A stretch of 20,000 bases of DNA, taken from the IMG/VR virus record IMGVR_UViG_3300027156_000006; one strand, written 5' to 3'. Positions 2,251 to 18,249 of this stretch are shown piece after piece. A program made the translations under genes and the position numbers. The stretch comes from an uncultured virus (IMG/VR IMGVR_UViG_3300027156_000006) (taxonomy: Duplodnaviria > Heunggongvirae > Uroviricota > Caudoviricetes). The stretch's first letter is position 1. Every line of letters begins with the position of its first letter. Under the pieces are notes generated by a model. That model searched no databases. It was not told the DNA's origin and was given only the letters and a program-made list of their open reading frames with translations.

Positions 2251-2275
2251 CAATGGTCCTTAATGGGACCATTAT
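2247..2275 (+). promoter_or_regulatory. Sigma70-type promoter overlapped by a palindrome
   Basis: TTGACA (2247-2252), 17-nt spacer, CATTAT (2270-2275); inverted repeat AATGGTCC (2252-2259) / GGACCATT (2266-2273). Confidence 0.65.
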
Positions 2276-2298
2276 GAGCCCATCTTCTCCCTTTTCCA

Positions 2299-3061: not shown

Positions 3062-3063
3062 TC

Positions 3064-3483: not shown

Positions 3484-3495
3484 CGATTTATGAAC

Positions 3496-3519
3496 GGCCC
3501 CCTTGATAGGGGGCCTTTT
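3496..3519 (+). terminator. Intrinsic terminator
   Basis: GGCCCCCT-TGAT-AGGGGGCC followed by TTTT. Confidence 0.8.
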
Positions 3520-3575
3520 GCTGGCACACTATGCACATGCGACGGCGAACGTCGCTAGCCCTCTGCTTCACCATC

Positions 3576-3908
3576 GTGACCGTCTCCTTCAATCACCTAC
3601 TGCCCAACCATCCTGTTTCTGCTTTTAAGGATGGAGAGCTTGCCATGCACTTTGGCCAGCCAATGGTGACGCGCAGCTTCTCCATGGGAGATCTGCAAGA
3701 ATTCATTTGCACCATTGAAAAGGCTATTGATGAAGAGCCTAACGTCGTGCAACAACTGGCCCTGGAGCGCATTCGTTGTGCTTTTGTTGTGAGCTTGGAC
3801 ATGCTCAAGCAGAATCATGAAGAGCTTCAAAAAGAGGCTCCTCTTGGTGCTGATTTTGAAGAATATCTAATGAACTACAACAATGCCATTAAAGGAGGCA
3901 AACTGTGA
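3576..3908 (+). CDS. Hypothetical protein (start uncertain: GTG 3576 or ATG 3531)
   Basis: ORF track 3531..3908; GTGA coupling to the next gene. Confidence 0.65.
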   Translation: MTVSFNHLLPNHPVSAFKDGELAMHFGQPMVTRSFSMGDLQEFICTIEKAIDEEPNVVQQLALERIRCAFVVSLDMLKQNHEELQKEAPLGADFEEYLMNYNNAIKGGKL

Positions 3909-4081
3909 GCACGCCCAAAGATGTGCTTTCAGACGCTATTTTTAATTACTTTGATAATGACAATGGCGATGAGTTCATCAAAGATCTCGCGGAATTGTTG
4001 GCGCAAGATAGGGATCATCATCTTAGGAAATTTCGCGCTATCTCTCATGCCTACGAACAACTCTTTGGCCAAAGCTTCTGA
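3905..4081 (+). CDS. Hypothetical protein (58 aa, MSTPKDVLSDAIFNYFD...), not in the ORF track
   Basis: GGAGG RBS upstream, GTGA overlap with the previous stop, natural-looking composition. Confidence 0.7.
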   Translation: MSTPKDVLSDAIFNYFDNDNGDEFIKDLAELLAQDRDHHLRKFRAISHAYEQLFGQSF

Positions 4082-4220
4082 TCCATTGTTGGATTGGGAT
4101 TATGACAAACGAAGCGTGATGCAACTTGCTACGGCAAAGCTTGAACGTAGGCTTCAATACTGGCGAGAGAAAGAGCAGGAGGAAATCCTGAAGCGATATC
4201 GTCTCGTCACTTCCATCTAG
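4047..4220 (+). CDS. Hypothetical protein (57 aa, MPTNNSLAKASDPLLDW...)
   Basis: C-terminal part of track ORF 3921..4220, read from ATG 4047. Confidence 0.55.
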   Translation: MPTNNSLAKASDPLLDWDYDKRSVMQLATAKLERRLQYWREKEQEEILKRYRLVTSI

Positions 4221-4257
4221 CCAAATTGCCAATTTCTACACACTACGAGGTTCAACA

Positions 4258-4467
4258 ATGACTCAAGAACATCCCATCACCCCAATGAGCGACTTCCACC
4301 CCGCACCATTCGATGACTTTTCCACCGAACTGCGCGATCCGTGGCCCGTTGTGGAGCGGCTACGCATGGCACTGCGCGAGGCCGAGCGCTACTGCCTCGG
4401 CGCTGAAAACACCACCGGGCAGTGCATCACATCCCTTCTTGAAATTCTTCCTGACGAAGATGACTGA
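4258..4467 (+). CDS. Small accessory hypothetical protein (69 aa; second possible start at MSDFHP)
   Basis: GAGG RBS and ATG 4258; ATGACTGA coupling to the next gene. Confidence 0.65.
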   Translation: MTQEHPITPMSDFHPAPFDDFSTELRDPWPVVERLRMALREAERYCLGAENTTGQCITSLLEILPDEDD

Positions 4468-4720
4468 CTTCCGAGCGCTGTGCGCCCGCATGGCTGACGA
4501 GCTGGACCATTACCGGCAGCTTTTGATGGATGACCGACGCGAAGCACATGCGTTGGCGACAGAAGCCCGCGCCGCACTTGCTCAGCCCAAGCCGCCGAGC
4601 TTGAGGGAGCAGGCGCTAGATGCCCTCACCCTTCTATGCAAAGGGCCGGACGCAACAGCTTTTGTGACGTGTAGAGACACCATCCGCCGTGCTCTCGAAC
4701 AGCTTCCCGACAACGAGTAG
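4460..4720 (+). CDS. Small accessory hypothetical protein (86 aa, MTDFRALCA...PPSLREQAL...IRRALEQLPD)
   Basis: ATG 4460 overlapping the upstream gene's end; blocks recalled from freshwater cyanophage accessory genes. Confidence 0.7.
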   Translation: MTDFRALCARMADELDHYRQLLMDDRREAHALATEARAALAQPKPPSLREQALDALTLLCKGPDATAFVTCRDTIRRALEQLPDNE

Positions 4721-4745
4721 TCACCTTCACTAATTACGCCAACCC

Positions 4746-4919
4746 ATGCCCACCAAGCTCAAAGCCAGCACCCTCCCCGTCAACCTCACCGCCTACCAGC
4801 GCGCCATCGACGCCGCCGCTCGCACCGTTTCCGGTATCCCGCGCTGCCAGCTAGAGGCCATCGTCGCCGCTGCCATCACCGCCATTGGCAAACCAACAGA
4901 TGACAACCAAGCGGCCTGA
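4746..4919 (+). CDS. Hypothetical protein (57 aa, MPTKLKASTLPVNLTAYQRAID...), not in the ORF track
   Basis: Read by hand; C-ending codon bias matches neighbouring genes. Confidence 0.65.
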   Translation: MPTKLKASTLPVNLTAYQRAIDAAARTVSGIPRCQLEAIVAAAITAIGKPTDDNQAA

Positions 4920-5076
4920 AAACCAACCCTGTCGCCTTGTCTCCCTCTGCGGTCAGTTCCTCACCGTCAATGGCACCTTCTCCGCAGACCCTGCCAGCGC
5001 CCTCACAGCCGAACGCTGGTGGCTTGAACGAGAACAACGACGCATCAACACCCTCTCCATCATCATCCGCGCCTAG
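4900..5076 (+). CDS. Hypothetical protein (58 aa, MTTKRPENQPCRLV...)
   Basis: Track ORF 4885..5076 read from ATG 4900; overlaps the 5' end of the RusA frame. Confidence 0.5.
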   Translation: MTTKRPENQPCRLVSLCGQFLTVNGTFSADPASALTAERWWLEREQRRINTLSIIIRA

Positions 5077-5500
5077 TGCCATCACCTTCAACGTGATCGG
5101 CATGGAACCAGCAACCCAAGGCTCTAAAAGCCATGTCGGTAACGGGATCATGCGCGAAACCAATCAGCGCCTCCGTCCCTGGCGCTCTCTCGTCACCGAC
5201 GCAGCCCTAGCAACCAATACCCCACTCATCAATCACCCCGTCTCCATCTCAATAACCTTTCGCTTCCTACGCCCCAAAGGCCACTACAACAAATCCGGCC
5301 TATCCCCTAAAGCACCAGCCCACCTAACCTCTCGCCTAAAGGGCGACATCGACAAACTTTCCCGTGCCGTGCTTGATGCCCTCACTGGCTCACTTCTTCA
5401 CGACGATTCTCAAGTGGTTCAACTGGCTGCCCACAAGCGCTACTGCACCGCAGAAGAAAAACCTGGTGCCCTCATCACCATCATCCCGCTGGCAACCTAA
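4970..5500 (+). CDS. rusA: RusA-family Holliday junction resolvase (start uncertain)
   Basis: PATQGSK N-terminal motif and catalytic pattern GDIDKLSRAVLDALTG...DDSQV. Confidence 0.85.
   Translation: MAPSPQTLPAPSQPNAGGLNENNDASTPSPSSSAPSAITFNVIGMEPATQGSKSHVGNGIMRETNQRLRPWRSLVTDAALATNTPLINHPVSISITFRFLRPKGHYNKSGLSPKAPAHLTSRLKGDIDKLSRAVLDALTGSLLHDDSQVVQLAAHKRYCTAEEKPGALITIIPLAT
5491..5500 (+). promoter_or_regulatory. Putative late-promoter motif
   Basis: GGCAACCTAA ending 19 nt before ATG 5520; recurrent motif. Confidence 0.6.
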
Positions 5501-5519
5501 AGCAGCGGCACCCTGTGCC

Positions 5520-5834
5520 ATGGAACCCTGGTCCATCGTTGCTGAAGATCCCGCAACAGGCGAACCCTTCGGCCTGGTCCTTCAACACGACGTTGACCCA
5601 GAACTCGCTGAACACATCGCACGCAATCTTCTCGCTACCTTCCGCCTCACAGGTGGCTACCTCCCAACCAACGGCCATCGTTCCCTTAAAGGTCACTACC
5701 TCTTCCTCTACTTCGTCGCACCAGAACCCGTCGCACGCTTAGCCACCATCTGGGCACGCTCCTTTCAAGACGCTGAAGACAAGCTCAATATCCTCGCCTC
5801 AGATGGCACCCTCCTCATGCCCTCCTCCGGTTAA
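5520..5834 (+). CDS. Hypothetical protein (104 aa, MEPWSIVAEDP...)
   Basis: C-terminal part of track ORF 5364..5834, starting after the rusA stop. Confidence 0.7.
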   Translation: MEPWSIVAEDPATGEPFGLVLQHDVDPELAEHIARNLLATFRLTGGYLPTNGHRSLKGHYLFLYFVAPEPVARLATIWARSFQDAEDKLNILASDGTLLMPSSG

Positions 5835-5843
5835 ACTCCGGCC

Positions 5844-7055
5844 ATGGCAAATACAATCTCAGATCTCAAGTTTGACCATAAGAACGCCCGCAAGCGTACT
5901 GATAGTTCCGCACGCCTCATTCAGGAATCCCTGCAGCGCTACGGCGCAGCACGCTCCATCGTCATCGACGAAGAGAACCGCATCCTTGCGGGCAACGGCA
6001 CCATCGAAGGTGCCAAGGCACTAGGGCTAACGAAGCTCAAGGTCGTTGAAGCCAGCGGTGACGAGATCATCGCCGTGCGCCGTAGCGGCCTCTCCGAAGA
6101 TGAGAAGGTCGGCCTCGCTATCGCTGACAACCGCGCTGCTGAACTCTCGGACTGGGATGCCGAGATGCTGCAACAGCTCAGCGAAGAGCATGACCTAGAG
6201 CCTTGGTTTGAAGCAGAAGACCTAGACGAGCTGCTTAAGGAAGCCGAGCAACTCGATCCAGTCGAAGGCAACACCGACCCCGATGAGGTGCCTGAGGCAC
6301 CCGAAGATCCGATCACCAAGCCAGGTGATCTCTGGATTCTCGGCAATCATCGCCTCCTCTGCGGTGACAGCACCAACCCGCAGCACGTTGAACGCCTGAT
6401 GGATCAGCAGGAGGCGGACATGCTCTACTGCGATCCTCCTTATGGGATGAACCTCAACACCGACTACAGCCAGATCAAAGGCTCCGCAAAAAGCCCTAAC
6501 GCAAAGGGCTACAAATGGAAAGAAGTAATAGGAGATGACAAAGATTTTGATCCATCGGCTCTAATAGCTTTGTTCCAAGATGTGCCAGAGCAATTTTGGT
6601 GGGGAGCTGATTATTACTTTGAATGCCTGCCTCGCGGTGGCAGCTTGATTGTTTGGCAAAAACGGGACAAGGCTGATGCTGAGATGATCGGTAACGATTT
6701 TGAGATCTGCTGGTCTAAGAAGCGCCATAAGAAAGCAACATTTTGGAAGCGCTGGGTTGGTTTTGACTCTGTAGAACGCGGAGAGAAGCGCGTCCACCCA
6801 ACGCAGAAGCCCGTTGACTTGCATTCATGGGTCTTCGATCAATGGGGAAAACAAGGTGACGTTGTAGTAGACCTCTTTGGAGGCTCAGGCTCCACCCTTA
6901 TCGCCTGCGAAAAGACCAACCGCCACTGCCGCATAATGGAACTCGACCCCGCCTACTGCGATGTGATCGTCAAGCGCTGGGAAGACTTCACCGGTAACAC
7001 CGCCATCTGCCAACCCTCCGCTACCCACTTTGCGGAGCAACAGGAGGCAGCCTGA
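5844..7055 (+). CDS. ParB-like N-terminal domain fused to an amino (N6-A/N4-C) DNA methyltransferase, beta-class motif order
   Basis: ParB-like SLQRYGAARSIVIDEENRILAGNG...ADNR; motif IV DPPY precedes HPTQKP and motif I DLFGGSGST; typical terminase-adjacent phage MTase. Confidence 0.92.
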   Translation: MANTISDLKFDHKNARKRTDSSARLIQESLQRYGAARSIVIDEENRILAGNGTIEGAKALGLTKLKVVEASGDEIIAVRRSGLSEDEKVGLAIADNRAAELSDWDAEMLQQLSEEHDLEPWFEAEDLDELLKEAEQLDPVEGNTDPDEVPEAPEDPITKPGDLWILGNHRLLCGDSTNPQHVERLMDQQEADMLYCDPPYGMNLNTDYSQIKGSAKSPNAKGYKWKEVIGDDKDFDPSALIALFQDVPEQFWWGADYYFECLPRGGSLIVWQKRDKADAEMIGNDFEICWSKKRHKKATFWKRWVGFDSVERGEKRVHPTQKPVDLHSWVFDQWGKQGDVVVDLFGGSGSTLIACEKTNRHCRIMELDPAYCDVIVKRWEDFTGNTAICQPSATHFAEQQEAA

Positions 7056-7378
7056 TGGCAGCCCGCGATTCCTACCAAGGTCAAGCTATCGAGCGGGCAC
7101 GCCGCTTCGCTCGCATAATCGCCAATGGCGGCCGTAGGTCGGACTGCCTGCGCTATGCCGAAGAAAACTGGGGGGTCAAGGCAAGCTCCTGCGATCAATA
7201 CCTCCGCATGGCCCGCGATCAGCTCAAGGCTGACTGGGACATCGAACGGCCCCAGATGATCGCTGACCTGCTCTCTCAGTGCTCCACCCTTCAGATGGAA
7301 GCCCGCCGCGCTGGGCAGTACCACATCGCTCTAGGTGCCATTAACACCGCAGCCAAGCTCGCTCAGCTCTGCTCGTGA
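7055..7378 (+). CDS. terS: Terminase small subunit (probable)
   Basis: 107-aa HTH-like protein translationally coupled to TerL; C-terminal ALGAINTAAKLAQL helix. Confidence 0.7.
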   Translation: MAARDSYQGQAIERARRFARIIANGGRRSDCLRYAEENWGVKASSCDQYLRMARDQLKADWDIERPQMIADLLSQCSTLQMEARRAGQYHIALGAINTAAKLAQLCS

Positions 7379-8724
7379 GCATCCTTGCTGCTGCACCAAC
7401 AGGCAACGTCCTTCAGCAGATCGGTCATGGCAACGGCGACCTTGATGTAGCCAACCTCCTCGCTCGCATCACAGCGGACCTGCACCCCGGTCAGCTCGCC
7501 TTTGTCGAAGACCAGACAACCGAGATCCTTGGCATTTCTGCCGGATACGGCGCTGGTAAAACCCGTGCACTAGCCAGCAAGGCCGTTCACCTCGCCGCCA
7601 GCAATCAGGGCTTCATCGGCATCGTCATGGAGCCCACCGGCCCATTGATCCGTGACATCTGGCAGAACGACTTCGACGACTTCCTAGAGGCCTACGACAT
7701 CCCCTACACGTTCCGCGCTTCACCGCTCCCGGAATACGTGCTGCACCTGCCCGGCGGCGACACCAAGATCCTCTGCCGCAGCTTTGAAAACTGGCAGCGC
7801 TGCATCGGCATCAACGCCGCATGGTGCCTCTGCGATGAAATTGATACTGTCCCACCCTCCACGGCCAACAAGGCCTTCCCCAAGATCCTTGGCCGCCTTC
7901 GTGCCGGCAACGTTCGGCAGTTCGGTGCAGCCTCCACACCTGAAGGCTTCCGCTGGATGTGGCAAACCTTCGCCTCAGAAGAGACCAAGGAACGCGCTGA
8001 TCGCAAGCTGATCAAGATGCGCACGGCAGACAACCCCTATCTGCCGCCTGACTTCATTGAGCGTCTACAGGCCAACTACGACCCGAACCTGCTGCAGGCC
8101 TACCTCAACGGTGAGTTTGTCTCGCTCACCACCGGCCAGGTGTACGACCGCTTCAACCGTGAGCTGCACGTTCAGACGGTTGACTGGGATCCAGAAGAGC
8201 CGATCCTGCTCGGCATTGACTTCAATATTGGCAACATGAGTGGCGTCTTAGCCGTGCGCCGTGGCCGTGAGCTGCACGTCTTTGATGAGATTACCGGTGC
8301 CCACGACACCGATGCCCTCGCTCAAGAGGCTCGCCGCCGTTACGGCAAAGCACGCATCCTTGGCTACCCCGATGCTTCCGGTGCCAACCGCAGCACCAAT
8401 AGCTCCCGCAGCGACATCGCCATCCTGGAGAGCTACGACATCAGCAACATGGCACCCTCAGCCAACCCACCGGTGCGCGACAGGATCGCAGCGGTGCAAG
8501 CGTTGCTGGAGAACGGCATGGCCGAGCGCCGTCTGTTCGTCGATAAGCGCTGCAAGAAGCTGATCGAGTGCCTAGAGCTGCAGAGCTACACAGAGCAAGG
8601 TGATCCAGACAAGAGCGCCGGCTATGACCACATGAATGATGCGCTCGGCTACATCGTCCACCGCTGCTTTGAAGTGGGCCGTGGCCACAGCGGTAAAGCA
8701 GTGCGCAATCTGCGCATCTACTGA
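7375..8724 (+). CDS. terL: Terminase large subunit
   Basis: Walker A GYGAGKT, Walker B LCDE, motif III ASTPEG, RNase H-like nuclease motifs GIDFN and DHMNDA. Confidence 0.95.
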   Translation: MSILAAAPTGNVLQQIGHGNGDLDVANLLARITADLHPGQLAFVEDQTTEILGISAGYGAGKTRALASKAVHLAASNQGFIGIVMEPTGPLIRDIWQNDFDDFLEAYDIPYTFRASPLPEYVLHLPGGDTKILCRSFENWQRCIGINAAWCLCDEIDTVPPSTANKAFPKILGRLRAGNVRQFGAASTPEGFRWMWQTFASEETKERADRKLIKMRTADNPYLPPDFIERLQANYDPNLLQAYLNGEFVSLTTGQVYDRFNRELHVQTVDWDPEEPILLGIDFNIGNMSGVLAVRRGRELHVFDEITGAHDTDALAQEARRRYGKARILGYPDASGANRSTNSSRSDIAILESYDISNMAPSANPPVRDRIAAVQALLENGMAERRLFVDKRCKKLIECLELQSYTEQGDPDKSAGYDHMNDALGYIVHRCFEVGRGHSGKAVRNLRIY

Positions 8725-8726
8725 TC

Positions 8727-8736
8727 GGAAACCTAG
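8727..8736 (+). promoter_or_regulatory. Putative late-promoter motif
   Basis: GGAAACCTAG between the terL stop and the portal start. Confidence 0.6.
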
Positions 8737-8747
8737 AAAAAAGGGCT

Positions 8748-10217
8748 GTGCACTTCAATCTCGCTGCCACTGAACTCAAGCCCGTCCTGTCCATTCAGGA
8801 TCTCGGCGTTCACGATCCCGGCATCGCCTGGCAGCGGATGCAGCCCCGCTGGGAACTCATCGAAGAGCTGATCGGTGGCACGCTGCAGCTGCAAGCCGCA
8901 GGCCGTCGCTACCTGCCGCAGGAGCCGAAGGAATCCGACGAGAGCTATCTCGCCCGCCTGCGCCGCAGCGTCTGCCCGCCGTACTACCAGCGCTTAGAGC
9001 AGATGCTGGCCGGCATGATCAGCCGCAAGCCAGTCCGTCTGGACAACGTGCCTGATCAGGTGCAAGAGCACATGATGGACGTCGATCTGCAGGGCAACGA
9101 TCTCAACGTCTACCTGCACAGCCTGGCCCGCACCTGTCTGCGCTACGGGCACGTCGGCGTGCTGGTGGACTTCCCTCGCGGTGATGAAGGCGACGACACA
9201 CCGGTTACTGACTTCAACCGTCCCTACTGGGTGAGCTACAGCCCACGGGACATCCTTGGCTGGCGAACTGACGTAGTGGGCGGCACGCAAAAGCTCACGC
9301 AGCTGCGCCTGCTAGAGCGCGTCGTCGTGCCTTACTCGGAATACGGCGAAGAGGTGGTGGAGCAGGTGCGGGTGCTGACGCCCGGTGCGTTCCAGCTGTT
9401 CCGCAAGCAGGCCTCCCGCTCCCGTGATTGGGAACTGGTCAGCGAAGGCCAGACCACGCTCGACGAGATCCCCTTTGCGGTTGCCTACTCCAACCGCGTG
9501 GGCATCCTGGAATCCACCCCGCCGCTGGAAGAGGTCGCACACCTCAACCTGCAGAGCTACCGCGTCAGCTCAGACCTCAGCAATCAGCTGCACATCGCTG
9601 CTGTGCCTCGCTTCCATCTGTACGGCGTGCCAGCCGAACTAGATGAGATCACTGCTGGCCCTGACTCCGCCATGGCTCTACCCGTGGATTCACGGGCTGA
9701 GTTTGTGGAGCCGCAAGGCACCAGCTACGGCTTCCAGTTCCAGCAGCTGGATCGCATTGAACGCCAGATCAATCAACTTGGCCTGGCCGCTGTGATGGGT
9801 CAAAACATGACCAACCAAGCGGCAGAAGCCAAGGCCATTGACCGCAGCCAAGGTGATGCTGCCCTGATGACCGTGGCGCTTGGCCTGCAGGATCTGATCG
9901 ACAACTGCCTGCGCTTCCACAGTGCGTTCCTCGGTCTGCCCAACAGCGGCAGCAGCATGGTCAACAACGACTTCGTGGCCCGCACGCTGGAGCCTGGTCA
10001 TGTAGCCGAGCTGATCAAGCTGCGCCTCAACGGTGACATCACGCAGGAAACCCTGCTGATCCAGCTAGCCGATGGTGAGTGGCTCTACGACGACTTCAAT
10101 GTCGATCAGGAGATTGAAGCCACCGCAGCGCAACAGCAATCACGGCTTGATGCACAAGCTGCGCAGCTTGATGCAAATCTGCAACAACTTCCGGGGCAAC
10201 CTAATCAGCAACCCTGA
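8748..10217 (+). CDS. Portal protein (DUF4055/SPP1-like)
   Basis: Follows TerL; 489 aa; YLPQEPKESDESYLARL, VDLQGNDL, YGHVGVLVD and PPLEEVAHLN motifs. Confidence 0.9.
   Translation: MHFNLAATELKPVLSIQDLGVHDPGIAWQRMQPRWELIEELIGGTLQLQAAGRRYLPQEPKESDESYLARLRRSVCPPYYQRLEQMLAGMISRKPVRLDNVPDQVQEHMMDVDLQGNDLNVYLHSLARTCLRYGHVGVLVDFPRGDEGDDTPVTDFNRPYWVSYSPRDILGWRTDVVGGTQKLTQLRLLERVVVPYSEYGEEVVEQVRVLTPGAFQLFRKQASRSRDWELVSEGQTTLDEIPFAVAYSNRVGILESTPPLEEVAHLNLQSYRVSSDLSNQLHIAAVPRFHLYGVPAELDEITAGPDSAMALPVDSRAEFVEPQGTSYGFQFQQLDRIERQINQLGLAAVMGQNMTNQAAEAKAIDRSQGDAALMTVALGLQDLIDNCLRFHSAFLGLPNSGSSMVNNDFVARTLEPGHVAELIKLRLNGDITQETLLIQLADGEWLYDDFNVDQEIEATAAQQQSRLDAQAAQLDANLQQLPGQPNQQP
10195..10204 (+). promoter_or_regulatory. 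Putative late-promoter motif
   Basis: GGCAACCTAA in the last codons of the portal gene, upstream of scaffold ATG 10232. Confidence 0.6.
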
Positions 10218-10231
10218 GCCTGTGGCTCTAC

Positions 10232-10915
10232 ATGCCCGACAACGACACCGCTCCTGTGGAGCAGTCTGCAAACAACGCTGATCTGCAAGCCCTGCAAGCA
10301 GAACTCGATGCCATGCGCCGCAAGAATGCGGAGCTGCTGGACGAGAAGAAGAAGCTGGCCAAGAAGCTGCCTGAAGTGCCCGATGGCGTTGATGTCCAGG
10401 AACTGCTGGACTTCAAGCGCAAGGTGGAGCAGCAGCAGCTGGAATCCAAAGGCAAGTACGACGAAGCGCTTAAGACCTACGAGCAGCAGTACCGCGAGCG
10501 TGAATCGCAGCTGCAGGCTCGTGTCGCTGAGCTAGAGGCCGAAAACCGTGAACTCAAGGTGATCGGTCCTGCCGTCGCTGCCCTGGCCGACACCGTGCAC
10601 GATCCAGATGAGGTGATCAGGTTGCGGCTCAAGCCCGATCAGATTGAGCGCGAAGCAGACGGCAGCGTGGTCGTTGTCGATGGCTACCAGCGCACACCAA
10701 TCAGCGACTGGGCACGCACCAGCCTGCCGCAGTACCGCCTCAAGGCACCAAAGCCCGCCGGCACCGGCGCACCGGTTGGCCGTAGCACCGCTGAACTACC
10801 TGCCGGCAGCAAAAACCCCTTCTCGCGTGAGCACTACAACCTCACCGAACAAGCACGGATCTACAAAACAGATCCTGAACTCTATGCACGCTTAAAAGCT
10901 GCAGCTAGTAAGTAA
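10232..10915 (+). CDS. Capsid scaffolding protein
   Basis: Coiled-coil N-terminal half, GTGA linker, C-terminal KNPFSREHYNLTEQARIYK; directly before the MCP. Confidence 0.85.
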   Translation: MPDNDTAPVEQSANNADLQALQAELDAMRRKNAELLDEKKKLAKKLPEVPDGVDVQELLDFKRKVEQQQLESKGKYDEALKTYEQQYRERESQLQARVAELEAENRELKVIGPAVAALADTVHDPDEVIRLRLKPDQIEREADGSVVVVDGYQRTPISDWARTSLPQYRLKAPKPAGTGAPVGRSTAELPAGSKNPFSREHYNLTEQARIYKTDPELYARLKAAASK

Positions 10916-11010
10916 ACGCTTCTGGCATACTTACAAGCAAGAGGGAAGGCTGTGCTGACCCATTGGCCTGTGGCCGCACCACAAACCCACTCTCTTTAGG
11001 AGCTTGAACC

Positions 11011-12066
11011 ATGGCGGCAACAGTCCGCTCGGATATTGTCATCCCGGAGATTTTTACTCCGTATCTGGAAGAGGCCACCACTCTTCGCAATGCCTTTATC
11101 GCTTCCGGTGTTGTGCAGCCCCTTGAGGCTCTCAACGCTGTGGCCGATGGCGGCGACTACGTGAATGTGCCCTTTTTCGATGCCAACCTCAGCGGCGACG
11201 CTGAAGTGCTGGCTGATAACGCCAGTCTGACCCCTGGCAACATCACCGCCGACAAGCAGCGCGGTGTGGTGCTGCACCGTGGTCGCGCTTGGGGTGTGCG
11301 TGAGCTGGCCAAGCTGGCTGCTGGTGCTGACCCCATGGCCGCCATCGGCAACAAGGTCGCTGCCTACATCGCTCACCAACAGCAGAAGGATCTGCTGGCC
11401 ACCCTCGCTGGTGTGTTTGGTGCAGTCGGTAGCAGCAACAGCTCGGCATCCTTTGTCGATCTGACCTTTGATGCCGGCGGTTCTGGTGAGACCCCTCTCA
11501 CCCCTCGTCACGTCGCCAAGGCTCGTGCACTGCTGGGTGATCAAGGCGACAAGCTGAGCGCTATCTGCATGCACTCGGCTGTCTACTACGACCTCGTAGA
11601 GCGTCGTGCCATTGACTACGTGACCGCCTCTGAAGCTCGCGCTACCGCTGCTGCTTCTAACGCTGCTACCCCCGATGTGTTCGCTGGCTCTGTGGCTGGC
11701 GCATATACCGCTGACGGCAGCGTGCCCTTTTACATGGGCATGCGCGTGATCGTCTCCGACGATGTGCAGACCAGCGGCTCTGGCTCCTCGAAGAAATATG
11801 CAACTTATTTCTTCACTCCGGGGGCAGTCGGATCGGGCGAAGCCCAGGGCATCAAAACCGAAGTGGACCGCGACATCCTCGCGCTGGCCGACTACATGGC
11901 CGTGTCCTGGCACAACGTGTTCCACCCCATTGGTGCTCAGTACCAGACCGCCGGCGGTGCTAACCCCTCACAGGCAACTCTGGCCACTGTTGCCAACTGG
12001 ACCAAGGTGTACGAGACCAAGAACATTGGCATCGTGCGCGGCACTGTCACCAGCAACTTCGACTGA
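11011..12066 (+). CDS. Major capsid protein
   Basis: AGGAG RBS; DIVIPEIFTPY, SGVV, RGRAW, GADPMAAI, EVDRDIL and NWTKVYETKNI motifs; 351 aa. Confidence 0.92.
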   Translation: MAATVRSDIVIPEIFTPYLEEATTLRNAFIASGVVQPLEALNAVADGGDYVNVPFFDANLSGDAEVLADNASLTPGNITADKQRGVVLHRGRAWGVRELAKLAAGADPMAAIGNKVAAYIAHQQQKDLLATLAGVFGAVGSSNSSASFVDLTFDAGGSGETPLTPRHVAKARALLGDQGDKLSAICMHSAVYYDLVERRAIDYVTASEARATAAASNAATPDVFAGSVAGAYTADGSVPFYMGMRVIVSDDVQTSGSGSSKKYATYFFTPGAVGSGEAQGIKTEVDRDILALADYMAVSWHNVFHPIGAQYQTAGGANPSQATLATVANWTKVYETKNIGIVRGTVTSNFD

Positions 12067-12077
12067 GGTTGATCTTC

Positions 12078-12236
12078 ATGGGACTGACCGGGTTCAACCT
12101 GGCTCGTCGTGAAGAAGAAGAGGCTGCTGCTTCGGCAGTGGCCTCTGTTTCTACAGAGTCAGAAGTCTGCTCCATGCCTGAGCAGAAAGAAGCCCCCAAG
12201 CGCGGGCGCAAGAAGGCTGAGTCTGTCGAAGACTGA
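12078..12236 (+). CDS. Small head-region hypothetical peptide (52 aa, MGLTGFNLARREEEE...PKRGRKK), not in the ORF track
   Basis: GAGG RBS after the MCP stop; TGATG coupling to the next ORF. Confidence 0.7.
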   Translation: MGLTGFNLARREEEEAAASAVASVSTESEVCSMPEQKEAPKRGRKKAESVED

Positions 12237-12373
12237 TGGCGGTCAAAGCTAAGGCGGGTGTTACTGCCCGCCTTTTTGGCAAGGGCAAACCCAAAAAGAC
12301 CCGGCAAGGGTATGGCCAGCACAGCCGGCCAAACCACGGGCGCAAAAAGCTAAGAGGACAAGGGCGTGGCTGA
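12236..12373 (+). CDS. Small highly basic peptide (45 aa) ending RKKLRGQGRG, not in the ORF track
   Basis: MAVKAKAGVTARLFGKGKPKKTRQGYGQHSRPNHGRKKLRGQGRG; overlaps the flanking genes at both ends. Confidence 0.7.
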   Translation: MAVKAKAGVTARLFGKGKPKKTRQGYGQHSRPNHGRKKLRGQGRG

Positions 12374-13379
12374 TCTGTCGCAGCAAGTTGAAGCGTTCCT
12401 GCGCAACGCGCTGCGGCAAAAACAGCTGGAAGATCGCCTGATCAGGCAAGCACTACGAGACCTGCGCACCACGCTGACAGCTGTAGAGCGCGTCGTTGGT
12501 CAGTCGGGTGTGCTGAGCTTTGGGCCGGGCCGTGAGCAGACCATCAATGCGGTGGTGGCCGCTGTGGCCCGCAGCGTGCAGGAGAGCTTCGGTGTGCCGC
12601 AACTGGCAGCGCTGCAGGAAGCCCTGCGGCCGTTTGTAGAGCAGCAGCTGAGCTTCGCCCGCCGCATGGTCACCATGGCCGGCGGTGACCTAATCAATGA
12701 AGGTGCAGCGTCAGCATCAACCGTTCAGGTGCAGCGCATCGTTAATGACGCGGTGGTGGCTGGCAAAACGCTGAGCACGCAGCTCACGCAGAGCCTGCCG
12801 GCGTTGGTGGCTGATCGTGTGGAGCGCTTTGCACGCCTTGGCCTCTCGGACATCGGCGGCGAAACCTTCGCCACCTACGAAAGCGCCGTGGTGCGCATCA
12901 CCGAAAACAACGTTGAAGCCCTGATCCGCACAGGTGTGCAGGAAGTAGGCAGCGCCGCGCAGCAGGCGATCTATGAGTTTGAAGCCGATCCTGACTGGAT
13001 GGGACCGGACGGGCTTGTCTGGACAGCAGTGCTGGATTCTGCCGTTTGCCCAATCTGCTTGAAGCTGGATGGCAAGCGATTTCCAGCTACTTACCGGAAG
13101 GTATCACCGCATTTTCAGTGTAGATGTGTAATCCTGCCTTGGAAATGGCGCAACGAGACGATGACCGATCCACAGGGCAACCCGGTGCAGCCCAATCGCC
13201 TGGCTGACGGTGATGGCGCCGAGGGTGCGTTGTCATTCAAAGTGGCTGCCAAGCAGTGGGTCAAAGACAACCCCGAGACTGCACAGGCCATCTTTGGCAA
13301 GAAGCTGGGCCAACGCCTTGTTGACGGTGAGATCAGCTTTGATCGTGCCGTCAAACTCTGGCAATCACCCAAGAAATAA
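12366..13379 (+). CDS. Head morphogenesis / minor head protein (SPP1 gp7 / Mu gpF family)
   Basis: WTAVLDSAVCPICLKLDG...PHFQCRC signature. Confidence 0.85.
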   Translation: MADLSQQVEAFLRNALRQKQLEDRLIRQALRDLRTTLTAVERVVGQSGVLSFGPGREQTINAVVAAVARSVQESFGVPQLAALQEALRPFVEQQLSFARRMVTMAGGDLINEGAASASTVQVQRIVNDAVVAGKTLSTQLTQSLPALVADRVERFARLGLSDIGGETFATYESAVVRITENNVEALIRTGVQEVGSAAQQAIYEFEADPDWMGPDGLVWTAVLDSAVCPICLKLDGKRFPATYRKVSPHFQCRCVILPWKWRNETMTDPQGNPVQPNRLADGDGAEGALSFKVAAKQWVKDNPETAQAIFGKKLGQRLVDGEISFDRAVKLWQSPKK

Positions 13380-13382
13380 GCG

Positions 13383-13392
13383 GGCAACCTAG
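13383..13392 (+). promoter_or_regulatory. Putative late-promoter motif
   Basis: GGCAACCTAG intergenic, before ATG 13411. Confidence 0.65.
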
Positions 13393-13410
13393 CGGCAAGG
13401 GTGTGCCGCT

Positions 13411-13968
13411 ATGACCGTCACTGTCGTTGCTACTGCTGGCGCTGCTGATGCCAACAGCTATCTGACAGTGGCTGCTGCAGATGATTTGGCCAACCTGTAC
13501 CTCGGCACTCTCAACTGGTCATCGGCCAGCACCGATAACAAAGGCCGTGCGCTGATCATGGCCACGCGCTACCTCGATGAGCTGAGCTACATCGGTGAGC
13601 GTGCTGCCAGCACACAAGCGCTGCTCTGGCCCCGCACGGACGCCGAGTGTGGCGACTGGTCTTACAGCAGCACCGAGATCCCCAAGCCGATCAAGCAGGC
13701 CACCTTTGACCTGGCCGAATACCTGCTCGGTGATGGCAATGCCCTGTCAACTGGCGGTGCCGGCAGTAGCGAACTGATCAGCGGCATCCCCAACGCCAAC
13801 CTCAAGCGTGCCCAGATTGATGTGATCAGCGTGGAGTTCAATTCCACCCCACAGGCCGAAAGCAAGAACGCTTTGAATGTGCTTCCGCACTTGTCTAAAG
13901 TGTTGGGATGCTTATGCACCAGCACCGCAGCATCAGCCTTCGGGTCGCGCCTCGTCCTGCGAAGTTAG
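13411..13968 (+). CDS. Head-tail adaptor (phage 'DnaT-like' connector family)
   Basis: ANSYLTVAAAD...ALIMATRYLD...TQALLWPR...IPKPIKQAT pattern and position after the head genes. Confidence 0.8.
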   Translation: MTVTVVATAGAADANSYLTVAAADDLANLYLGTLNWSSASTDNKGRALIMATRYLDELSYIGERAASTQALLWPRTDAECGDWSYSSTEIPKPIKQATFDLAEYLLGDGNALSTGGAGSSELISGIPNANLKRAQIDVISVEFNSTPQAESKNALNVLPHLSKVLGCLCTSTAASAFGSRLVLRS

Positions 13969-13973
13969 ACAAG

Positions 13974-14552
13974 ATGCGCGTTGCTGAAGGCCAGCTTGAT
14001 TTCTTCAGCACTCCGGCCGCTGCACCGGAGAAAAAGCGCAGCGAAGGACACCTTGCTAAACCACTGACCCGCGAGGAACAGCGGCGGTTTGGGCGCATGT
14101 ATGCCGAAAACATCGGCCTGATCAAGATGTTCGGCGGGAAGCTGTGCCGCAAGTACAGCCACTGCATGGCCAAGGAGGATATCTTCTCCTGCTGTGACAT
14201 TGCCTTCTTGAAGGCGTGCCGTGCTTGGGATCCCGAGAAGGGAAAGCTGAGCACGATCTTCTGGAGCTTTGCCCAAGGTGAAGTGCTGCACTTTTTGCGG
14301 GGCCACAACTGGACGATCAAGGCCACGCACAAGGTCAGGCTGCTGGGCAACAACGCCAGGCGGCTGATGGCGTTGGGCTGGCAGCCGGCAGCGATCTGCA
14401 AGGAGCTGAGCTGCAGCAAGCAAGACCTCAAGGAAGCACTGCTAGCGACAGCAGGCGTGGCCCATGACGTGAAGGGCTTTGACCTACATGTATGCCCGCG
14501 CATGACGCCGTGGGAGGTACTTGAGGCCGAAGAGGAGGCTGCTGCTAGTTAG
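13974..14552 (+). CDS. Phage sigma70-family factor, regions 2 and 3 only
   Basis: LTREEQ (region 1.2-like), ENIGLIK...EDIFSCCDIAFLKACRAWDPEKGKLSTIFW...GEVLHFLR (region 2), PAAICKELSCSKQDLKEAL (region 3 HTH); ends with no recognisable region 4. Confidence 0.8.
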   Translation: MRVAEGQLDFFSTPAAAPEKKRSEGHLAKPLTREEQRRFGRMYAENIGLIKMFGGKLCRKYSHCMAKEDIFSCCDIAFLKACRAWDPEKGKLSTIFWSFAQGEVLHFLRGHNWTIKATHKVRLLGNNARRLMALGWQPAAICKELSCSKQDLKEALLATAGVAHDVKGFDLHVCPRMTPWEVLEAEEEAAAS

Positions 14553-14553
14553 G

Positions 14554-14563
14554 GGCAACCTAA
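14554..14563 (+). promoter_or_regulatory. Putative late-promoter motif
   Basis: GGCAACCTAA intergenic, before tail tube ATG 14587. Confidence 0.65.
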
Positions 14564-14586
14564 GGCACACGCCACAGGTTTAAGTC

Positions 14587-15066
14587 ATGGCCACCGGTGC
14601 CTTTTTTAACTCGCTGGGGTATCGGTTCTATGTGAAGGCCGGCACCACCGCCAGCACCAAGCCAACCGCTAGCACCGGCATGACTGAGGTGCTGTCCCTG
14701 ACCAACGCTGGTATCCAGGGCACCAGCCAGACGCAGGAAGTGCAGGACTACGGCAGCACGCTGGGCTTTACCGCTTCGCTGGTGACCACGCAGGCTTACA
14801 CCATCCCCTGCGAGATGAACCTCAACCTGAATGACGCCGGTTATGCCGTCCTCAAAAATGCTGCCCTAAATGCTGCAACCGGCACCACTGTTGAGTGGTA
14901 TCGTGAATCGCCCGAGATGAGTGGCACCGGCAGCCCTGAATACCACTCCGGCGTCGCCTTCGTGACCGACTTCTCGGAGTCGATTGCTGCAGGCAATGTT
15001 GCAACTGTCAGTTTTACCTTGTCGGGCTACGGCTCGTATTCCTGGTCTGCCGAGACCAACGCCTGA
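14587..15066 (+). CDS. Major tail tube protein (siphovirus type)
   Basis: 159 aa, T/S/G-rich, beta-strand-like; GVAFVTDFSES...GNVATVSFTLSGYG C-terminal signature. Confidence 0.85.
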   Translation: MATGAFFNSLGYRFYVKAGTTASTKPTASTGMTEVLSLTNAGIQGTSQTQEVQDYGSTLGFTASLVTTQAYTIPCEMNLNLNDAGYAVLKNAALNAATGTTVEWYRESPEMSGTGSPEYHSGVAFVTDFSESIAAGNVATVSFTLSGYGSYSWSAETNA

Positions 15067-15093
15067 GCAACTTAGGTTGTCGGGTGGACAGCA

Positions 15094-15123
15094 GAGCGGC
15101 CAGCTGGAGATGGCCGCTTTTTT
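15094..15123 (+). terminator. Intrinsic terminator between convergent genes
   Basis: AGCGGCCA-GCTGGAGA-TGGCCGCT followed by a T-run. Confidence 0.8.
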
Positions 15124-15127
15124 GTGT

Positions 15128-15577
15128 CTACAACCCGCCGATGCCGTCTAGGCGTCGCCACTGCTCAGCAAAGAAGCGATCTAGCGGTTGCTTCTCTAGG
15201 GCTGGCTTGATCCAGTTGCGGCCTGGTACCAGTGTGCCCTTGCTGGTGGTGTAGCCCGTCAAGATGAGGCCGGCATACATGAATCCGTCTTTGCTCTTGG
15301 GTTCCCATGTGAAGCGCAGCTGCGTTGCACTGGGGCGATCACGACGTTGAGAGCGCAGCAGACCGCCGAGGTCCACGATGTCGCGTGGGCTGCTGACGGT
15401 TTGCCCATTGCGGCGTTTGGTGGCACGCGGCCAACCGAACTGCGGCGTTTGGATCTCTTCCTTGAGCTGATCACCCAAGACCTTCCCGTAGGTGGTCAGG
15501 ATCTGCGGCACGCGCAGCTTGAGCTGATTGGCATTCCAGCCGGTCAGCTTGAAGTTGGCCTTGACCTGAACTGGCAT
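15128..15577 (-). CDS. HK97 gp10-like neck / tail-completion protein (probable)
   Basis: PRDIVDLGGLLRS...YAGLILTG...PGRNWIKPAL pattern. Confidence 0.6.
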   Translation of the reverse strand: MPVQVKANFKLTGWNANQLKLRVPQILTTYGKVLGDQLKEEIQTPQFGWPRATKRRNGQTVSSPRDIVDLGGLLRSQRRDRPSATQLRFTWEPKSKDGFMYAGLILTGYTTSKGTLVPGRNWIKPALEKQPLDRFFAEQWRRLDGIGGL

Positions 15578-15972
15578 CAGCCCTGCACGTAGCGGGCCAG
15601 CCGGATCTTGTCGCCAATGACCTGCTGCACGGTGCTGCCAATCAGACCGGTGGTGCCGTAGGGGTAGCGGCTGTTGATCACTTCGCAGTCGATGCTGCCT
15701 TGACCGGCGAAGTTCAGAGTGCCGACCACTCCGGGCTTGATGCGTGCATCCAGTGCTTGCGGGCTGACCGCATAGCCCTCGTAGGTCTCAACTTCAGTGT
15801 CAACGCCAGGAAAGTCCGAGGCCCTGGTGCTGCCTTGACGCAGGTACAAGCTGACCGTGACTGTTTCCGTGGCCGGCACAACGTTGCCGGTGACGGGATC
15901 AGTGACTGTGCCAACGGTTGGAACCGTGAAGATTGCAGTGGCGTTGGCCAGTGCAGCGAGAGCGCTAGTCAT
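15577..15972 (-). CDS. Probable head-closure / neck protein
   Basis: 131 aa, beta-strand-like, with DPVTGN motif; TGATG-coupled to the gp10-like gene. Confidence 0.5.
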   Translation of the reverse strand: MTSALAALANATAIFTVPTVGTVTDPVTGNVVPATETVTVSLYLRQGSTRASDFPGVDTEVETYEGYAVSPQALDARIKPGVVGTLNFAGQGSIDCEVINSRYPYGTTGLIGSTVQQVIGDKIRLARYVQG

Positions 15973-15975
15973 GGC

Positions 15976-15985
15976 CTAGGTTCCC
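15976..15985 (-). promoter_or_regulatory. Putative late-promoter motif (leftward)
   Basis: GGGAACCTAG on the minus strand, 3 nt before the ATG at 15972. Confidence 0.65.
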
Positions 15986-15994
15986 GCAATCAGC

Positions 15995-16004
15995 GGCAAC
16001 TTAA
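15995..16004 (+). promoter_or_regulatory. Putative late-promoter motif (rightward)
   Basis: GGCAACTTAA before tape measure GTG 16024. Confidence 0.65.
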
Positions 16005-16023
16005 GAGCACATGAAGGCGTGTT

Positions 16024-18249
16024 GTGGCGGAGAGTCTGGGCTCAGCTGTCTTAACAGTCAGCGTTGATGATGCCCAGCTCAAAGCAGGCCTGCAAGCTGC
16101 AGAACGTCAAGCAACAGCGACTGGCCGCGCAGTAGAAAAAGCCTTCACACCGTCCGGCAAGTCGGTGCAGACTGCTGCCAACGGTCTGCAGTATTTCATT
16201 GATACGCAGGGTCGTGCCCGTGATACGGCTGGTAAGTTTCTGACCGTTGCACAGCAGCAGGCGGCTGGGATTGAAAACGTCGGCAAAAGTGCAAAGCGGG
16301 CAAGCTTTGACATCAGCGGCCTAGGTGATGCGTTAGCTGCGATTGGTATTGGTGCTGCCGCTGCTGGGTTTCTGCGTGGCTCCGTTAATGCTGCTGTAGA
16401 ACTTGAAAGTATTAGCAAGAAACTCAGCAATACGCTCGGTGAGCAAGGTGCTGGGCAGGCACTCAGTTTTACCAAGGGCTTGGCTGATCAGCTGGGCCTC
16501 AGCTTCAAAACGCTGGCCGGTAGTTTTGGCAGCTTTACAGCCGCAGCCTCGGCGGCCAATGTTCCGCTTGACCAGCAGAAAGAGCTGTTCGCTGCTGTCG
16601 CTAAGGCGGCGCAGGCTCTTGGTCTGAGCAACGATGAAATCAATGGCTCACTGCTGGCCCTGCAGCAGGTTGCAGCCAAAGGCACCGTGCAGATGGAAGA
16701 ACTGCGCGGTCAGCTTGGTGAGCGCTTGCCGATTGCTTTTGGTGCTACTGCCAAAGGGCTTGGCATCACACAGCAAGAGCTAATTAAGCTCGTGGAGTCT
16801 GGAAGGCTCACAGCATCTGAGTTTTTCCCTGCTCTGACCAAAGGCCTTAATGAGCTGACAGCAGGTGCTGGTGGTTCGGCAACTGCAGCTCAGAACTTCC
16901 AAAAGCTGGCTAATGCTTTTGACGAGCTGCAGACATCCTTTGGAAAGACTTTGCTGCCAACCATTACCGAGCAGGTCAAGAACCTGACCGGTGCGTTGAG
17001 TGGGTTGCAGATTGGAATTGATGCCAACAAGCTTGGCCTTGGTGGCCTCTTTGGCAACCTTGGCCTAGTTCCAGATGCAGGCATTGAGGCCGTTGCATCG
17101 GTGCGGCAACTTGCTGAGCAGTATCAGCTGACCGCTGAGCAGGCACGGGCTCTGTTCTTTGATGCGGCCAAGCTTGAAGGTCTAACACTTACCAGCACAG
17201 GCTTTCTCCCCGACGCTAAAGGTTTGGAGCGAGCGCTAGAGCGCTTGCCGCAACTAGCCGAAGAATTCAGGGCCAAAAATAAGGATGCAGTCACAGAGCT
17301 GAAAGCACAAGCGGCAGAGGCTGCTCGTGTTGCTGCAGAGCAGAAAAAAGGACGTGACAGCGTTGAAAACATTCAAGAAGCCATTAAGGCTTTGTCTTCA
17401 GAGCAGAAGGCATTGGCGGTTGATAGTCAGCGCTATGCAGACATCTCGCAAGAGATCGTCAACAAGCAAACGCGACTCAATGAGCTGAAGAAGACCGAGG
17501 GCCAGCGTTTTGCCGAAAGTATTGCTGCTGCAAATCAGCTTCGTAGTATTCAAGAGGAGATCGCCATCCAACAGCAGCGCGGCAGCTTGACTGGTACTGG
17601 CATTGGCGCGTTACAAGCTGTCAAAGCGCTGGAGGATGCCAAACGAGCTGAGCAAGAAGCCCAGGCTGCTCTTGGTGCTGATCCTGGTAACTCCAGCCTC
17701 TTCAACGCCTCGCAGCAGGCAGCAGCCAATGTTCAGCTGGCTGCAGCTAAGACCAAGGCCGACCTTGAAGACGCTTTTAGGTCCGCACAAGATGCGGTGC
17801 GCAGCATCAGCCGCAGCATTGAGGATTCCGTCACTGCCCTGAACGCCGCACGCGGTAGCGCTGAGGGCATCAATAAGTTCATCAATCCCCAGCAAGCCCG
17901 TGAGCGGCAACAGGCTGCCAACGTGACCTTGCTGCGTGAAGCAAGCGATCTGGCTAAGCAGCTTGGCGTCACTGCCACCTTCCGGGGTGGGCTGACGCAG
18001 CGCAACAGCCAGCTCAACGAGTTCATCACAGCTGCACGGCAAGAGCTGCGTGCTCCTGAGGACATTGCACGCTCCAACTTGGATTTAGCGCGTGCTCAGA
18101 ACGATCTCGCCACCGTCAACGAGTCCCTAGTCAATGTGACTACTCAGCTGGCGGAAGCGACCGCAAACCTAGCGAGTAAGGACTGGAACGTTTACGTGAA
18201 CGCTCCGGCCACTGCTGATCTGCCCCGTGGCGTGGAGGTTTACCAATGA
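16024..18249 (+). CDS. Tail tape measure protein
   Basis: MAESLGSAVLTVSVD start, tape-measure domain ALQQVAAKGTVQMEELRGQLGERLP, Ala/Gln-rich helical body; 741 aa. Confidence 0.92.
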   Translation: MAESLGSAVLTVSVDDAQLKAGLQAAERQATATGRAVEKAFTPSGKSVQTAANGLQYFIDTQGRARDTAGKFLTVAQQQAAGIENVGKSAKRASFDISGLGDALAAIGIGAAAAGFLRGSVNAAVELESISKKLSNTLGEQGAGQALSFTKGLADQLGLSFKTLAGSFGSFTAAASAANVPLDQQKELFAAVAKAAQALGLSNDEINGSLLALQQVAAKGTVQMEELRGQLGERLPIAFGATAKGLGITQQELIKLVESGRLTASEFFPALTKGLNELTAGAGGSATAAQNFQKLANAFDELQTSFGKTLLPTITEQVKNLTGALSGLQIGIDANKLGLGGLFGNLGLVPDAGIEAVASVRQLAEQYQLTAEQARALFFDAAKLEGLTLTSTGFLPDAKGLERALERLPQLAEEFRAKNKDAVTELKAQAAEAARVAAEQKKGRDSVENIQEAIKALSSEQKALAVDSQRYADISQEIVNKQTRLNELKKTEGQRFAESIAAANQLRSIQEEIAIQQQRGSLTGTGIGALQAVKALEDAKRAEQEAQAALGADPGNSSLFNASQQAAANVQLAAAKTKADLEDAFRSAQDAVRSISRSIEDSVTALNAARGSAEGINKFINPQQARERQQAANVTLLREASDLAKQLGVTATFRGGLTQRNSQLNEFITAARQELRAPEDIARSNLDLARAQNDLATVNESLVNVTTQLAEATANLASKDWNVYVNAPATADLPRGVEVYQ

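Follow-up and report, generated by a model that had tools for sequence, protein, structure and literature searches.

A stretch of 20,000 nucleotides (nt) from an uncultured virus of the class Caudoviricetes (IMG/VR record IMGVR_UViG_3300027156_000006) carries a 10-bp motif, GGVAACYTAR, ahead of genes of its structural region. We call this stretch, at its full length, the window; positions given below are window coordinates unless they carry the prefix G001 (the nearest record) or an L number (related contigs). An earlier note on this DNA had described the motif as a candidate late promoter and had listed seven sites. A search with the consensus GGVAACYTAR recovered all seven at the same coordinates, six on the plus strand (5491, 8727, 10195, 13383, 14554 and 15995) and one on the minus strand (15976); 0.23 matches were expected by chance, and none of 200 dinucleotide shuffles reached seven. 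As that note had claimed, the motif always lies on the coding strand and ends 3–27 nt ahead of a start codon, the start codons used for these spacings being those conserved in relatives. The copies are listed below, together with a sigma-like gene (‘sigma 2’) that had been missed in the earlier note.

5491–5500, plus strand: motif copy GGCAACCTAA, whose TAA is the stop codon of a RusA-like gene (4937–5500); its target is ATG 5520 (not GTG 5515), 19 nt on, of a conserved gene of 104 amino acids (aa; MEPWS...)
8727–8736, plus strand: motif copy GGAAACCTAG, starting 2 nt past the stop of the terminase large-subunit gene; 11 nt to portal GTG 8748
10195–10204, plus strand: motif copy GGCAACCTAA, within the final portal codons; 27 nt to scaffold ATG 10232
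13383–13392, plus strand: motif copy GGCAACCTAG, starting 3 nt past the head-morphogenesis stop; 18 nt to adaptor (Ad1) ATG 13411
13974–14552, plus strand: sigma 2, the sigma-like gene (192 aa), inside the late cluster and flanked by the adaptor and tube genes
14554–14563, plus strand: motif copy GGCAACCTAA, starting 1 nt past the stop of the sigma-like gene; 23 nt to tail-tube-like ATG 14587
15976–15985, minus strand: motif copy GGGAACCTAG, 3 nt to ATG 15972 of an inverted two-gene neck operon (15972–15128)
15995–16004, plus strand: motif copy GGCAACTTAA, 19 nt to tape-measure GTG 16024; back to back with the copy at 15976, 9 nt apart

The unit headed by the copy at 13383 includes the sigma-like gene. 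We conclude that the box is real and common to the relatives of this phage, and that its most likely function is that of a late promoter consisting of one box, read by the phage's own short sigma factor. Judged from sequence, the probability that GGVAACYTAR is a promoter of this phage is about 70%. The new element here is the conserved 192-aa sigma-like gene in the late cluster as the best candidate reader of the box.

The phage itself is a phage of ~41 kb related to viruses of cyanobacteria; its structural genes have ~65% DNA identity to those of the cyanosiphoviruses KBS-S-2A and S-H1. The nearest record, G001 (106,734 bp), is identical to the window as far as window position 18,361, and its gene content (Pfam, 141 open reading frames, ORFs) makes up two full phage gene sets. 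The set at ~1–70 kb has 44–59% G+C (~48% overall) and includes a portal, a capsid gene, a 1809-aa tape measure, fibres and a lysin. The set from ~70.5 kb to the end has ~59% G+C and includes a terminase, a portal, a capsid gene, a 741-aa tape measure and a lysozyme, and additionally a sigma factor, ERF and a serine recombinase. Resemblance to the relatives is confined to this second set, with BLAST similarity from G001 70,772 on; the relatives are free-standing ~41-kb genomes, of which two have terminal repeats. G001 begins with 140 bases that recur at G001 70,498–70,637 (window 4478–4617) with 99.3% identity, and a related contig (L019) begins exactly at the repeat point G001 70,498. The left part of the window, 1–4477, has ~47% G+C and is part of another, unrelated phage genome of ~70 kb, which has a portal, capsid, tape measure and lysin of its own. 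The two phage genomes were probably joined through assembly at the shared 140-bp repeat, and a physical link may exist between them. The earlier note had reported no copy of the motif in 1–4250. This count is true, but the region is another phage's genome and not the early region of the present one, so absence of the motif there is uninformative about early genes.

The idea of the earlier note implies copies that are enriched at gene boundaries and oriented with the genes, and both properties were found. G001 contains 10 copies, all within 71.5–97.1 kb: the part from the other phage (70,497 bases) has none, and the part from this phage (36,237 bases) has all 10. Five complete ~41-kb relatives have 9–13 copies each versus 1–2 for a reversed-pattern control. 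Across 52 related loci, oriented by the portal gene, we counted 107 forward and 12 reverse copies, with at least one copy in 49 of the 52; the reversed pattern gave 18 forward and three reverse matches in the same loci. In six genomes, 51 of 61 copies are located at gene boundaries versus 5.3 expected (binomial P 2e-44, resting on crude longest-ORF gene calls with some genes missed), and 45 of the 61 have a same-strand start at most 60 nt downstream.

In more than 50 related contigs the ten letters are kept while the flanks diverge freely. A more distant clade has looser forms at the same places, e.g. GGCAAGCTAA and GGAAAACTAG. Letters G1, G2, A4 and T8, invariant in exact copies by definition of the pattern, are also kept in the looser copies GGCATACTTA, GGAATACTTA, GGTAAGCTAT, GGCAAGCTAA and GGAAAACTAG. 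At 30 of 117 sites in the relatives, as at window 5498–5500, the TAA or TAG of the motif terminates the reading frame of the upstream gene; at 47 further sites the upstream stop codon ends 1–11 nt before the motif. No copy was found in the ~10-kb arm that carries the genes of the RpoD-like sigma, ERF and recombinase. In the isolates KBS-S-2A and S-H1 there are one and zero exact copies, respectively, none of them intergenic, and the motif is not enriched in these genomes. A CTAAAC-like word that precedes some late genes of KBS-S-2A showed no strand excess (18 forward versus 20 reverse) and was rejected.

Facing pairs of copies occur as well: in three related contigs (L048 2285–2308, L052 2882–2905 and L056 1273–1296) two copies form a perfect 10-bp inverted repeat around GAAA. 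This repeat, GGAAACCTAG gaaa CTAGGTTTCC, is located upstream of the portal gene in some relatives and may be a bidirectional promoter or a hairpin.

Surroundings of the motif were characterized by a profile of 70 site clusters, many of which are orthologous sites and thus not independent. In agreement with the earlier note, which had seen no shared −35 box, information content of the profile between −50 and −4 does not exceed 0.13 bit. Upstream signals are limited to a weak purine at −3 and to C at −1, the commonest letter before GG (44 of 70). GCAATC-like words seen upstream of three copies, a candidate for a −35 element, were lost in the profile. Downstream, motif positions 15 and 16 are enriched in A (45 of 70 and 37 of 70, respectively), and 62 of the 70 clusters have an A within positions 14–16 versus ~38 expected by base composition. 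Positions 15–16 are 7–8 nt past the conserved T, which is where the transcription start would fall if positions 3–8 were a −10 hexamer. An A-rich stretch (AAAG) follows the motif in the same profile.

The distance between motif and start codon is 3–49 nt overall and 11–19 nt among relatives for the portal gene alone; such variation rules out a ribosome site of the Shine–Dalgarno type. Real start codons are situated either exactly 3 nt or at least 11 nt past the motif, other short values coming from miscalled starts. The 3-nt case is the neck operon. Its ATG 15972 has an in-frame TAG one codon upstream, and the first sixteen codons differ between relatives by eight silent changes and one replacement; this ATG is therefore a real start, and the transcript has to begin at or before it. 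Two alternative ways to place the motif on a promoter fail on this geometry. Reading GGAAC as a −35 box of the extracytoplasmic function (ECF) type, ~30–35 bp upstream of the start, would put the start ~25 nt past the motif and cut off the neck operon and other genes, with start codons 3–27 nt past the motif. Taking motif positions 8–9 (TA) as −12/−11 is likewise excluded by the neck operon. The neck operon and the tape-measure gene are separated by 51 nt, in which the two opposed copies are the sole conserved elements. At the far end of the neck operon the window has the following feature.

15093–15120: terminator-like hairpin of 10 pairs with a T run, between the tube gene, which ends at 15066 on the plus strand, and the convergent neck operon, which ends at 15128 on the minus strand

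This hairpin is a putative bidirectional terminator that would close both the tube and the neck units. Terminators of the hairpin-plus-T-run kind also directly precede the copy at G001 94,882 and several of those in relatives. Matches to sigma-70-type promoters were absent from window 4000–20000 (0 found versus 3.7 expected), and canonical sigma-70 promoter scans of the presumed early arm stayed at or below shuffle level and were uninformative. A candidate second box downstream, CTGTGC, was set aside as partly explained by the conserved portal start (GTGCAC); a remainder is left after this explanation.

Boundary enrichment, orientation, conservation, lack of a −35 signal, A at the predicted start, the back-to-back copies and resemblance to the cyanobacterial J-Box promoter (see below) favour the way the earlier note had read the box: a −10-type late promoter element, GG followed by nAACYT, with A in the second and T in the sixth place of the hexamer.

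Sigma 2 matches the PHROG family ‘RNA polymerase sigma factor’ with E 1.4e-12, and PDB matches found by Foldseek for its AlphaFold model are sigma factors at all listed ranks 1–50 (best E 2.5e-5). The start at 13974 is the point where homology begins in most relatives. The protein is conserved in 74 viral loci with 60–100% identity; its 78 near relatives are 128–218 aa long, and 19 of them are named ‘specialized sigma subunit’ by their sources. An exhaustive profile search delineated a close family of 101–311 aa, mostly 160–230 aa, matched to the C-terminus; two close members were scanned, P0060 with a Pfam match above the cut-off (26.7 bits) and P0081 without a match to any family. Region 4 was not found in sigma 2: the profile match stops at about residue 160 of 192, and the tail is a low-confidence segment with one acidic helix. 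Four distant matches of ~250 aa that were scanned have region 4 at ~197–245, past the aligned part, and are full sigma factors. Sigma 2 is thus a sigma-like protein with probable regions 2–3 of the SigB/F/G–FliA type and no region 4, an incomplete member of the family. Such a protein fits a promoter that has no −35 box and a long element on the −10 side.

In KBS-S-2A the RpoD-like sigma has a homologue (35% identity), sigma 2 is missing and the motif is not enriched, and S-H1 has none of RpoD-like sigma, sigma 2 and motif; joint absence of sigma 2 and motif is a correlation over only one or two genomes. The C-terminus of sigma 2 (14490–14552) contains a conserved TPWEVL word followed by the acidic helix; by analogy with the C-terminus of phage T4 gp55, which serves the clamp, it could be a docking peptide for a partner. 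A small protein of 62 aa, similar to HTH_23 and to sigma region 4, is encoded beside the lysis genes (G001 96,768–96,953, plus strand). A distant relative of sigma 2, P0087 (311 aa), has an N-terminal HTH_23 domain fused to a sigma 2-like part; homology between this end and the 62-aa protein is not established (E 0.096). Metagenome bins that contain relatives of sigma 2 (L154 and L155) are labelled Ca. Fonsibacter lacus and uncultured Synechococcus. The Ca. Fonsibacter bin probably holds a mis-binned phage contig, and binning of phage contigs is weak evidence on the host.

In the mechanism that we favour, GG-V-A-A-C-Y-T-A-R would be the core of the late promoters, a single extended −10-type element with no −35 box. 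The GG would act as the extended −10 and positions 3–8 (nAACYT) as the hexamer, its A and T being flipped out on melting. Transcription would start at a purine 6–8 nt past the T; the predicted leaders are ~6–22 nt long, and the neck operon message would be leaderless. Each copy would head a short unit of head, neck, tail or lysis genes, some of the units ending at hairpin terminators. Sigma 2, the short phage-encoded sigma-like protein, would read the box. Given that the motif is a promoter, sigma 2 is slightly more likely than not to be its reader; the RpoD-like phage sigma would be an unlikely one, and a sigma of the host SigF/SigJ type a little less likely still.

Several observations weigh against this reading. 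The boundary statistic inherits the roughness of the gene calls, and the 70-cluster profile the orthology of its sites. The last three motif letters (TAR) are as conserved as the hexamer, which is unusual for a promoter; together with the use of the motif as a stop codon this might indicate a role in RNA or in translation. For the neck operon, transcription would have to start 6 nt past the T, one below the usual distance, and the message would have to be leaderless. As to the reader, sigma 2 stays below the Pfam cut-off for Sigma70_r2 (E 0.002, 18.2 bits, cut-off 24); its NCBIfam matches (FliA/WhiG, 4.9e-6; SigBFG, 2.4e-5) are far under the family cut-offs; and the AlphaFold model is of middling confidence (predicted local distance difference test score, pLDDT, 68.6). 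The sigma 2 gene is itself preceded by motif copies, which requires something else to set the circuit going, be it sigma 1 (the RpoD-like phage sigma), a host SigF-type sigma or read-through. A search of RNA libraries gave five runs with small shares (0.06–0.08 of sampled words). The four runs that were compared hold contigs of relatives, mostly <95% alike, with unreadable starts, ends and strands. Some contigs from these libraries bridge the motif sites 8727, 14554 and 15976/15995, which means that either read-through RNA or contaminating DNA crosses the sites. Contig ends near 15130–15165, seen in two runs of one study, are possibly linked to the hairpin at 15093–15120; we take them as no evidence.

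Part of these observations has a natural place in another explanation, that the motif acts in RNA as an intercistronic signal, either an endoribonuclease cleavage site or a protein site coupling termination of one cistron to initiation of the next. The motif is indeed squeezed between stop and start, with 30 of 117 sites supplying the stop codon and 47 more following it by 1–11 nt; bridging of three motif sites by the RNA-library contigs implies that the motif can be within RNA; and the A-rich AAAG comes after it. However, the sites have no shared fold (mean z −0.53 for 70 sites, computed against mononucleotide shuffles), and most minimum-energy folds leave the core letters unpaired. The spacing to the start codon varies (3–49 nt). 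The opposed copies in the 51-nt divergent gap have no upstream transcript, barring promoters inside the neighbouring genes, and some other copies come directly after terminators. The conserved letters, moreover, match a known type of DNA promoter, the J-Box, letter for letter. We hold a signal in RNA to be quite improbable. A still smaller chance, of a few percent in our estimate, is given to the motif being the site of a phage DNA-binding regulator, e.g. the 62-aa helix-turn-helix protein, that switches on promoters situated elsewhere. Presence of a small HTH_23/sigma-region-4-like protein beside the lysis genes would agree with it, and ten conserved base pairs would suit a protein site, but the motif is asymmetric and strictly oriented, and its distance of 3–27 nt from start codons puts it where the core promoter must be. 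Around the motif there is no other shared promoter element, and the 51-nt divergent gap is too small to hold separate promoters.

The remaining alternative keeps the promoter as described and replaces its reader by the second sigma gene of the phage.

G001 97,286–98,197, minus strand: sigma 1, RpoD-like, 304 aa; ~11 kb beyond the right end of the window

Sigma 1 has regions 1.2, 2 and 4; the cyanobacterial RpoD subfamily matches it best, with a score under the cut-off. All five complete relatives carry the gene (78–79% identity in four of them). It is placed like an early-to-late switch gene, being the last one in a leftward, presumably early, block and followed on the same strand by a motif copy at G001 97,107. 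In alignment with HrdB, sigma 1 departs from primary sigmas in the contact residues of regions 4.2 and 3.0, RERIRQ being changed to RQATQQ and HMVE to QAND; their alteration would fit a lost ability to read a −35 box. Sigma 1, unlike sigma 2, poses no bootstrapping problem. Primary-type sigma factors, on the other hand, read TAnnnT hexamers with T at −12, and the motif never has T at this place. Region 2.3–2.4 of sigma 1 (GYKFSTYAYWWIRQ) is invariant, of the primary-sigma type and the same in KBS-S-2A, the genome that lacks the motif as a repeated element. In the fifth relative, G006, sigma 1 is only 40% identical while the motif is unchanged. On these grounds sigma 1 in place of sigma 2 as the reader of a real promoter appears improbable to us.

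A wider form of the favoured mechanism can be stated tentatively. Sigma 2, alone or with a separate small helix-turn-helix partner, may be a natural two-domain sigma for cyanobacterial RNA polymerase at J-Box-like one-box promoters, one of which would start at a leaderless AUG. It would then be a siphovirus ‘split sigma’ counterpart of T4 gp55, derived from a group 3 sigma of the SigF/SigJ kind, and the RpoD-like sigma would act one step earlier in a two-sigma cascade. We regard this scheme as a possibility somewhat short of even chances.

The earlier note had also pointed to two weaker variants of the motif, at 10924 and 18163, of which one stood and the other did not. The former precedes the major capsid gene.

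10924–10933, plus strand: variant box GGCATACTTA, 8 nt past the scaffold stop and 77 nt before major capsid ATG 11011
10934–11010, plus strand: conserved leader of the capsid gene, ~77 nt, with GGCTGTGCTGACCC, GGCCTGTGGCC and a strong AGGAG ribosome site

In relatives, box 10924 is conserved in the same alignment columns as GGCATACTTA, GGAATACTTA or GGTAAGCTAT. The variant at 18163, GCAAACCTAG, lies inside the tape-measure gene. It is absent from the matching place in all four relatives compared, where the best match has 2–3 mismatches, and is probably a chance occurrence. The leader words GGCTGTGCTGACCC and GGCCTGTGGCC are duplicated in one relative, and the consensus fold of the leader is weak (−7 kcal/mol); the leader may be a translational or stability element. 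The word CCTGTGGC (10219–10226) is also found 5 nt ahead of the scaffold start. Between the capsid and head-morphogenesis genes there is a small, very basic ORF (12237–12368, MAVKAKAG...); in relatives a motif copy precedes it by ~20 nt, and in the window this copy is degraded (GCAAGAAGGC). The first motif-headed unit contains, before the terminase genes, a gene (5844–7055) for a 403-aa protein with a ParB-like N-terminal part and a DNA methyltransferase domain.

The proposed pairing of box and sigma would give a testable job to sigma factors for which the genome papers cited here offer no more than a gene listing. It would likewise delimit late transcription units in a widespread, uncultured group of phages of ~41 kb. 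As the pair comprises just ten letters of DNA and a 192-aa sigma lacking region 4, it is small enough for in vitro testing or for use as an orthogonal switch in cyanobacteria. The likeness of the box to host promoters suggests that the phages borrowed the SigF/SigJ promoter type of the host rather than invented a new one. Genome papers on the cyanosiphoviruses P-SS2 (PMC2784084), S-LBS1 (PMC6157547) and KBS2A (PMC3751600) list sigma genes and, in the parts considered here, describe no cognate box; the literature searches made here turned up no published description of this box or of the short sigma.

Late promoters of phage T4 are read by gp55 together with gp33 and the gp45 clamp (PMC2988020). 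Shared with T4, on the proposed reading, are a single box of 8–10 bp at −10, absence of a −35 element, a small diverged phage sigma without region 4 and a role ahead of virion genes. The box sequence is different, and sigma 2 keeps region 3 and is group-3-like, whereas gp55 has region 2 only. No gp33-like co-activator or sliding clamp was found among Pfam matches of the 141 G001 ORFs or PHROG matches of 27 ORFs, with small ORFs left that have no matches. In phage phiEco32 the gp36 sigma, helped by gp79, uses middle and late promoters with AATGTA centred at −11.5 (PMC12276001). There, as proposed here, a distant phage sigma directs the host core polymerase to promoters defined mainly by one element near −10. 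The C-terminal domain of gp36 contacts the −35 region and the flap, while sigma 2 has no such domain, and the host, the sequence and the partner protein are all unlike.

The closest parallels come from cyanobacteria. The J-Box of Nostoc punctiforme and other cyanobacteria, GGGaAtacT, is read by its authors as an extended −10 (GGG) ahead of the hexamer aAtacT, whose A and T are flipped out; it is accompanied by a weak AT-rich −35 and depends on the group 3 sigma SigJ (PMC6495340). In Synechocystis PCC 6803, a SigF promoter needs GGTAA in the −12 region (PMC2532724). The phage box differs from the J-Box in having two G instead of three, AACY instead of Atac inside the hexamer and two extra conserved letters (A and R) past the T, and in being phage-borne and heading virion genes; the candidate sigma, unlike the readers of J-Box and SigF promoters, has no region 4. 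Common to all three are the run of G directly before the hexamer and the A and T in its second and sixth places. The −35 element is weak or dispensable in the cyanobacterial promoters, and none was detected in the 70 clusters of the phage box. In promoters of the J-Box/SigF type the transcript begins ~10 bp past the hexamer centre; the hints at such a start in the phage are indirect, namely A enrichment at motif positions 15–16 and the lack of any real start codon less than 3 nt from the motif. The J-Box is read by a group 3 sigma, and the phage has a group-3-like sigma gene, on which dependence of the box is predicted. Individual copies come closer yet: GGTAA of the SigF promoter recurs as GGTAAGCTA in some relatives, box 10924 is the window copy nearest to the J-Box (GGaAtacT), and the capsid-gene variant GGAATACT of the relatives equals the last eight J-Box letters, i.e. 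the J-Box minus its first G.

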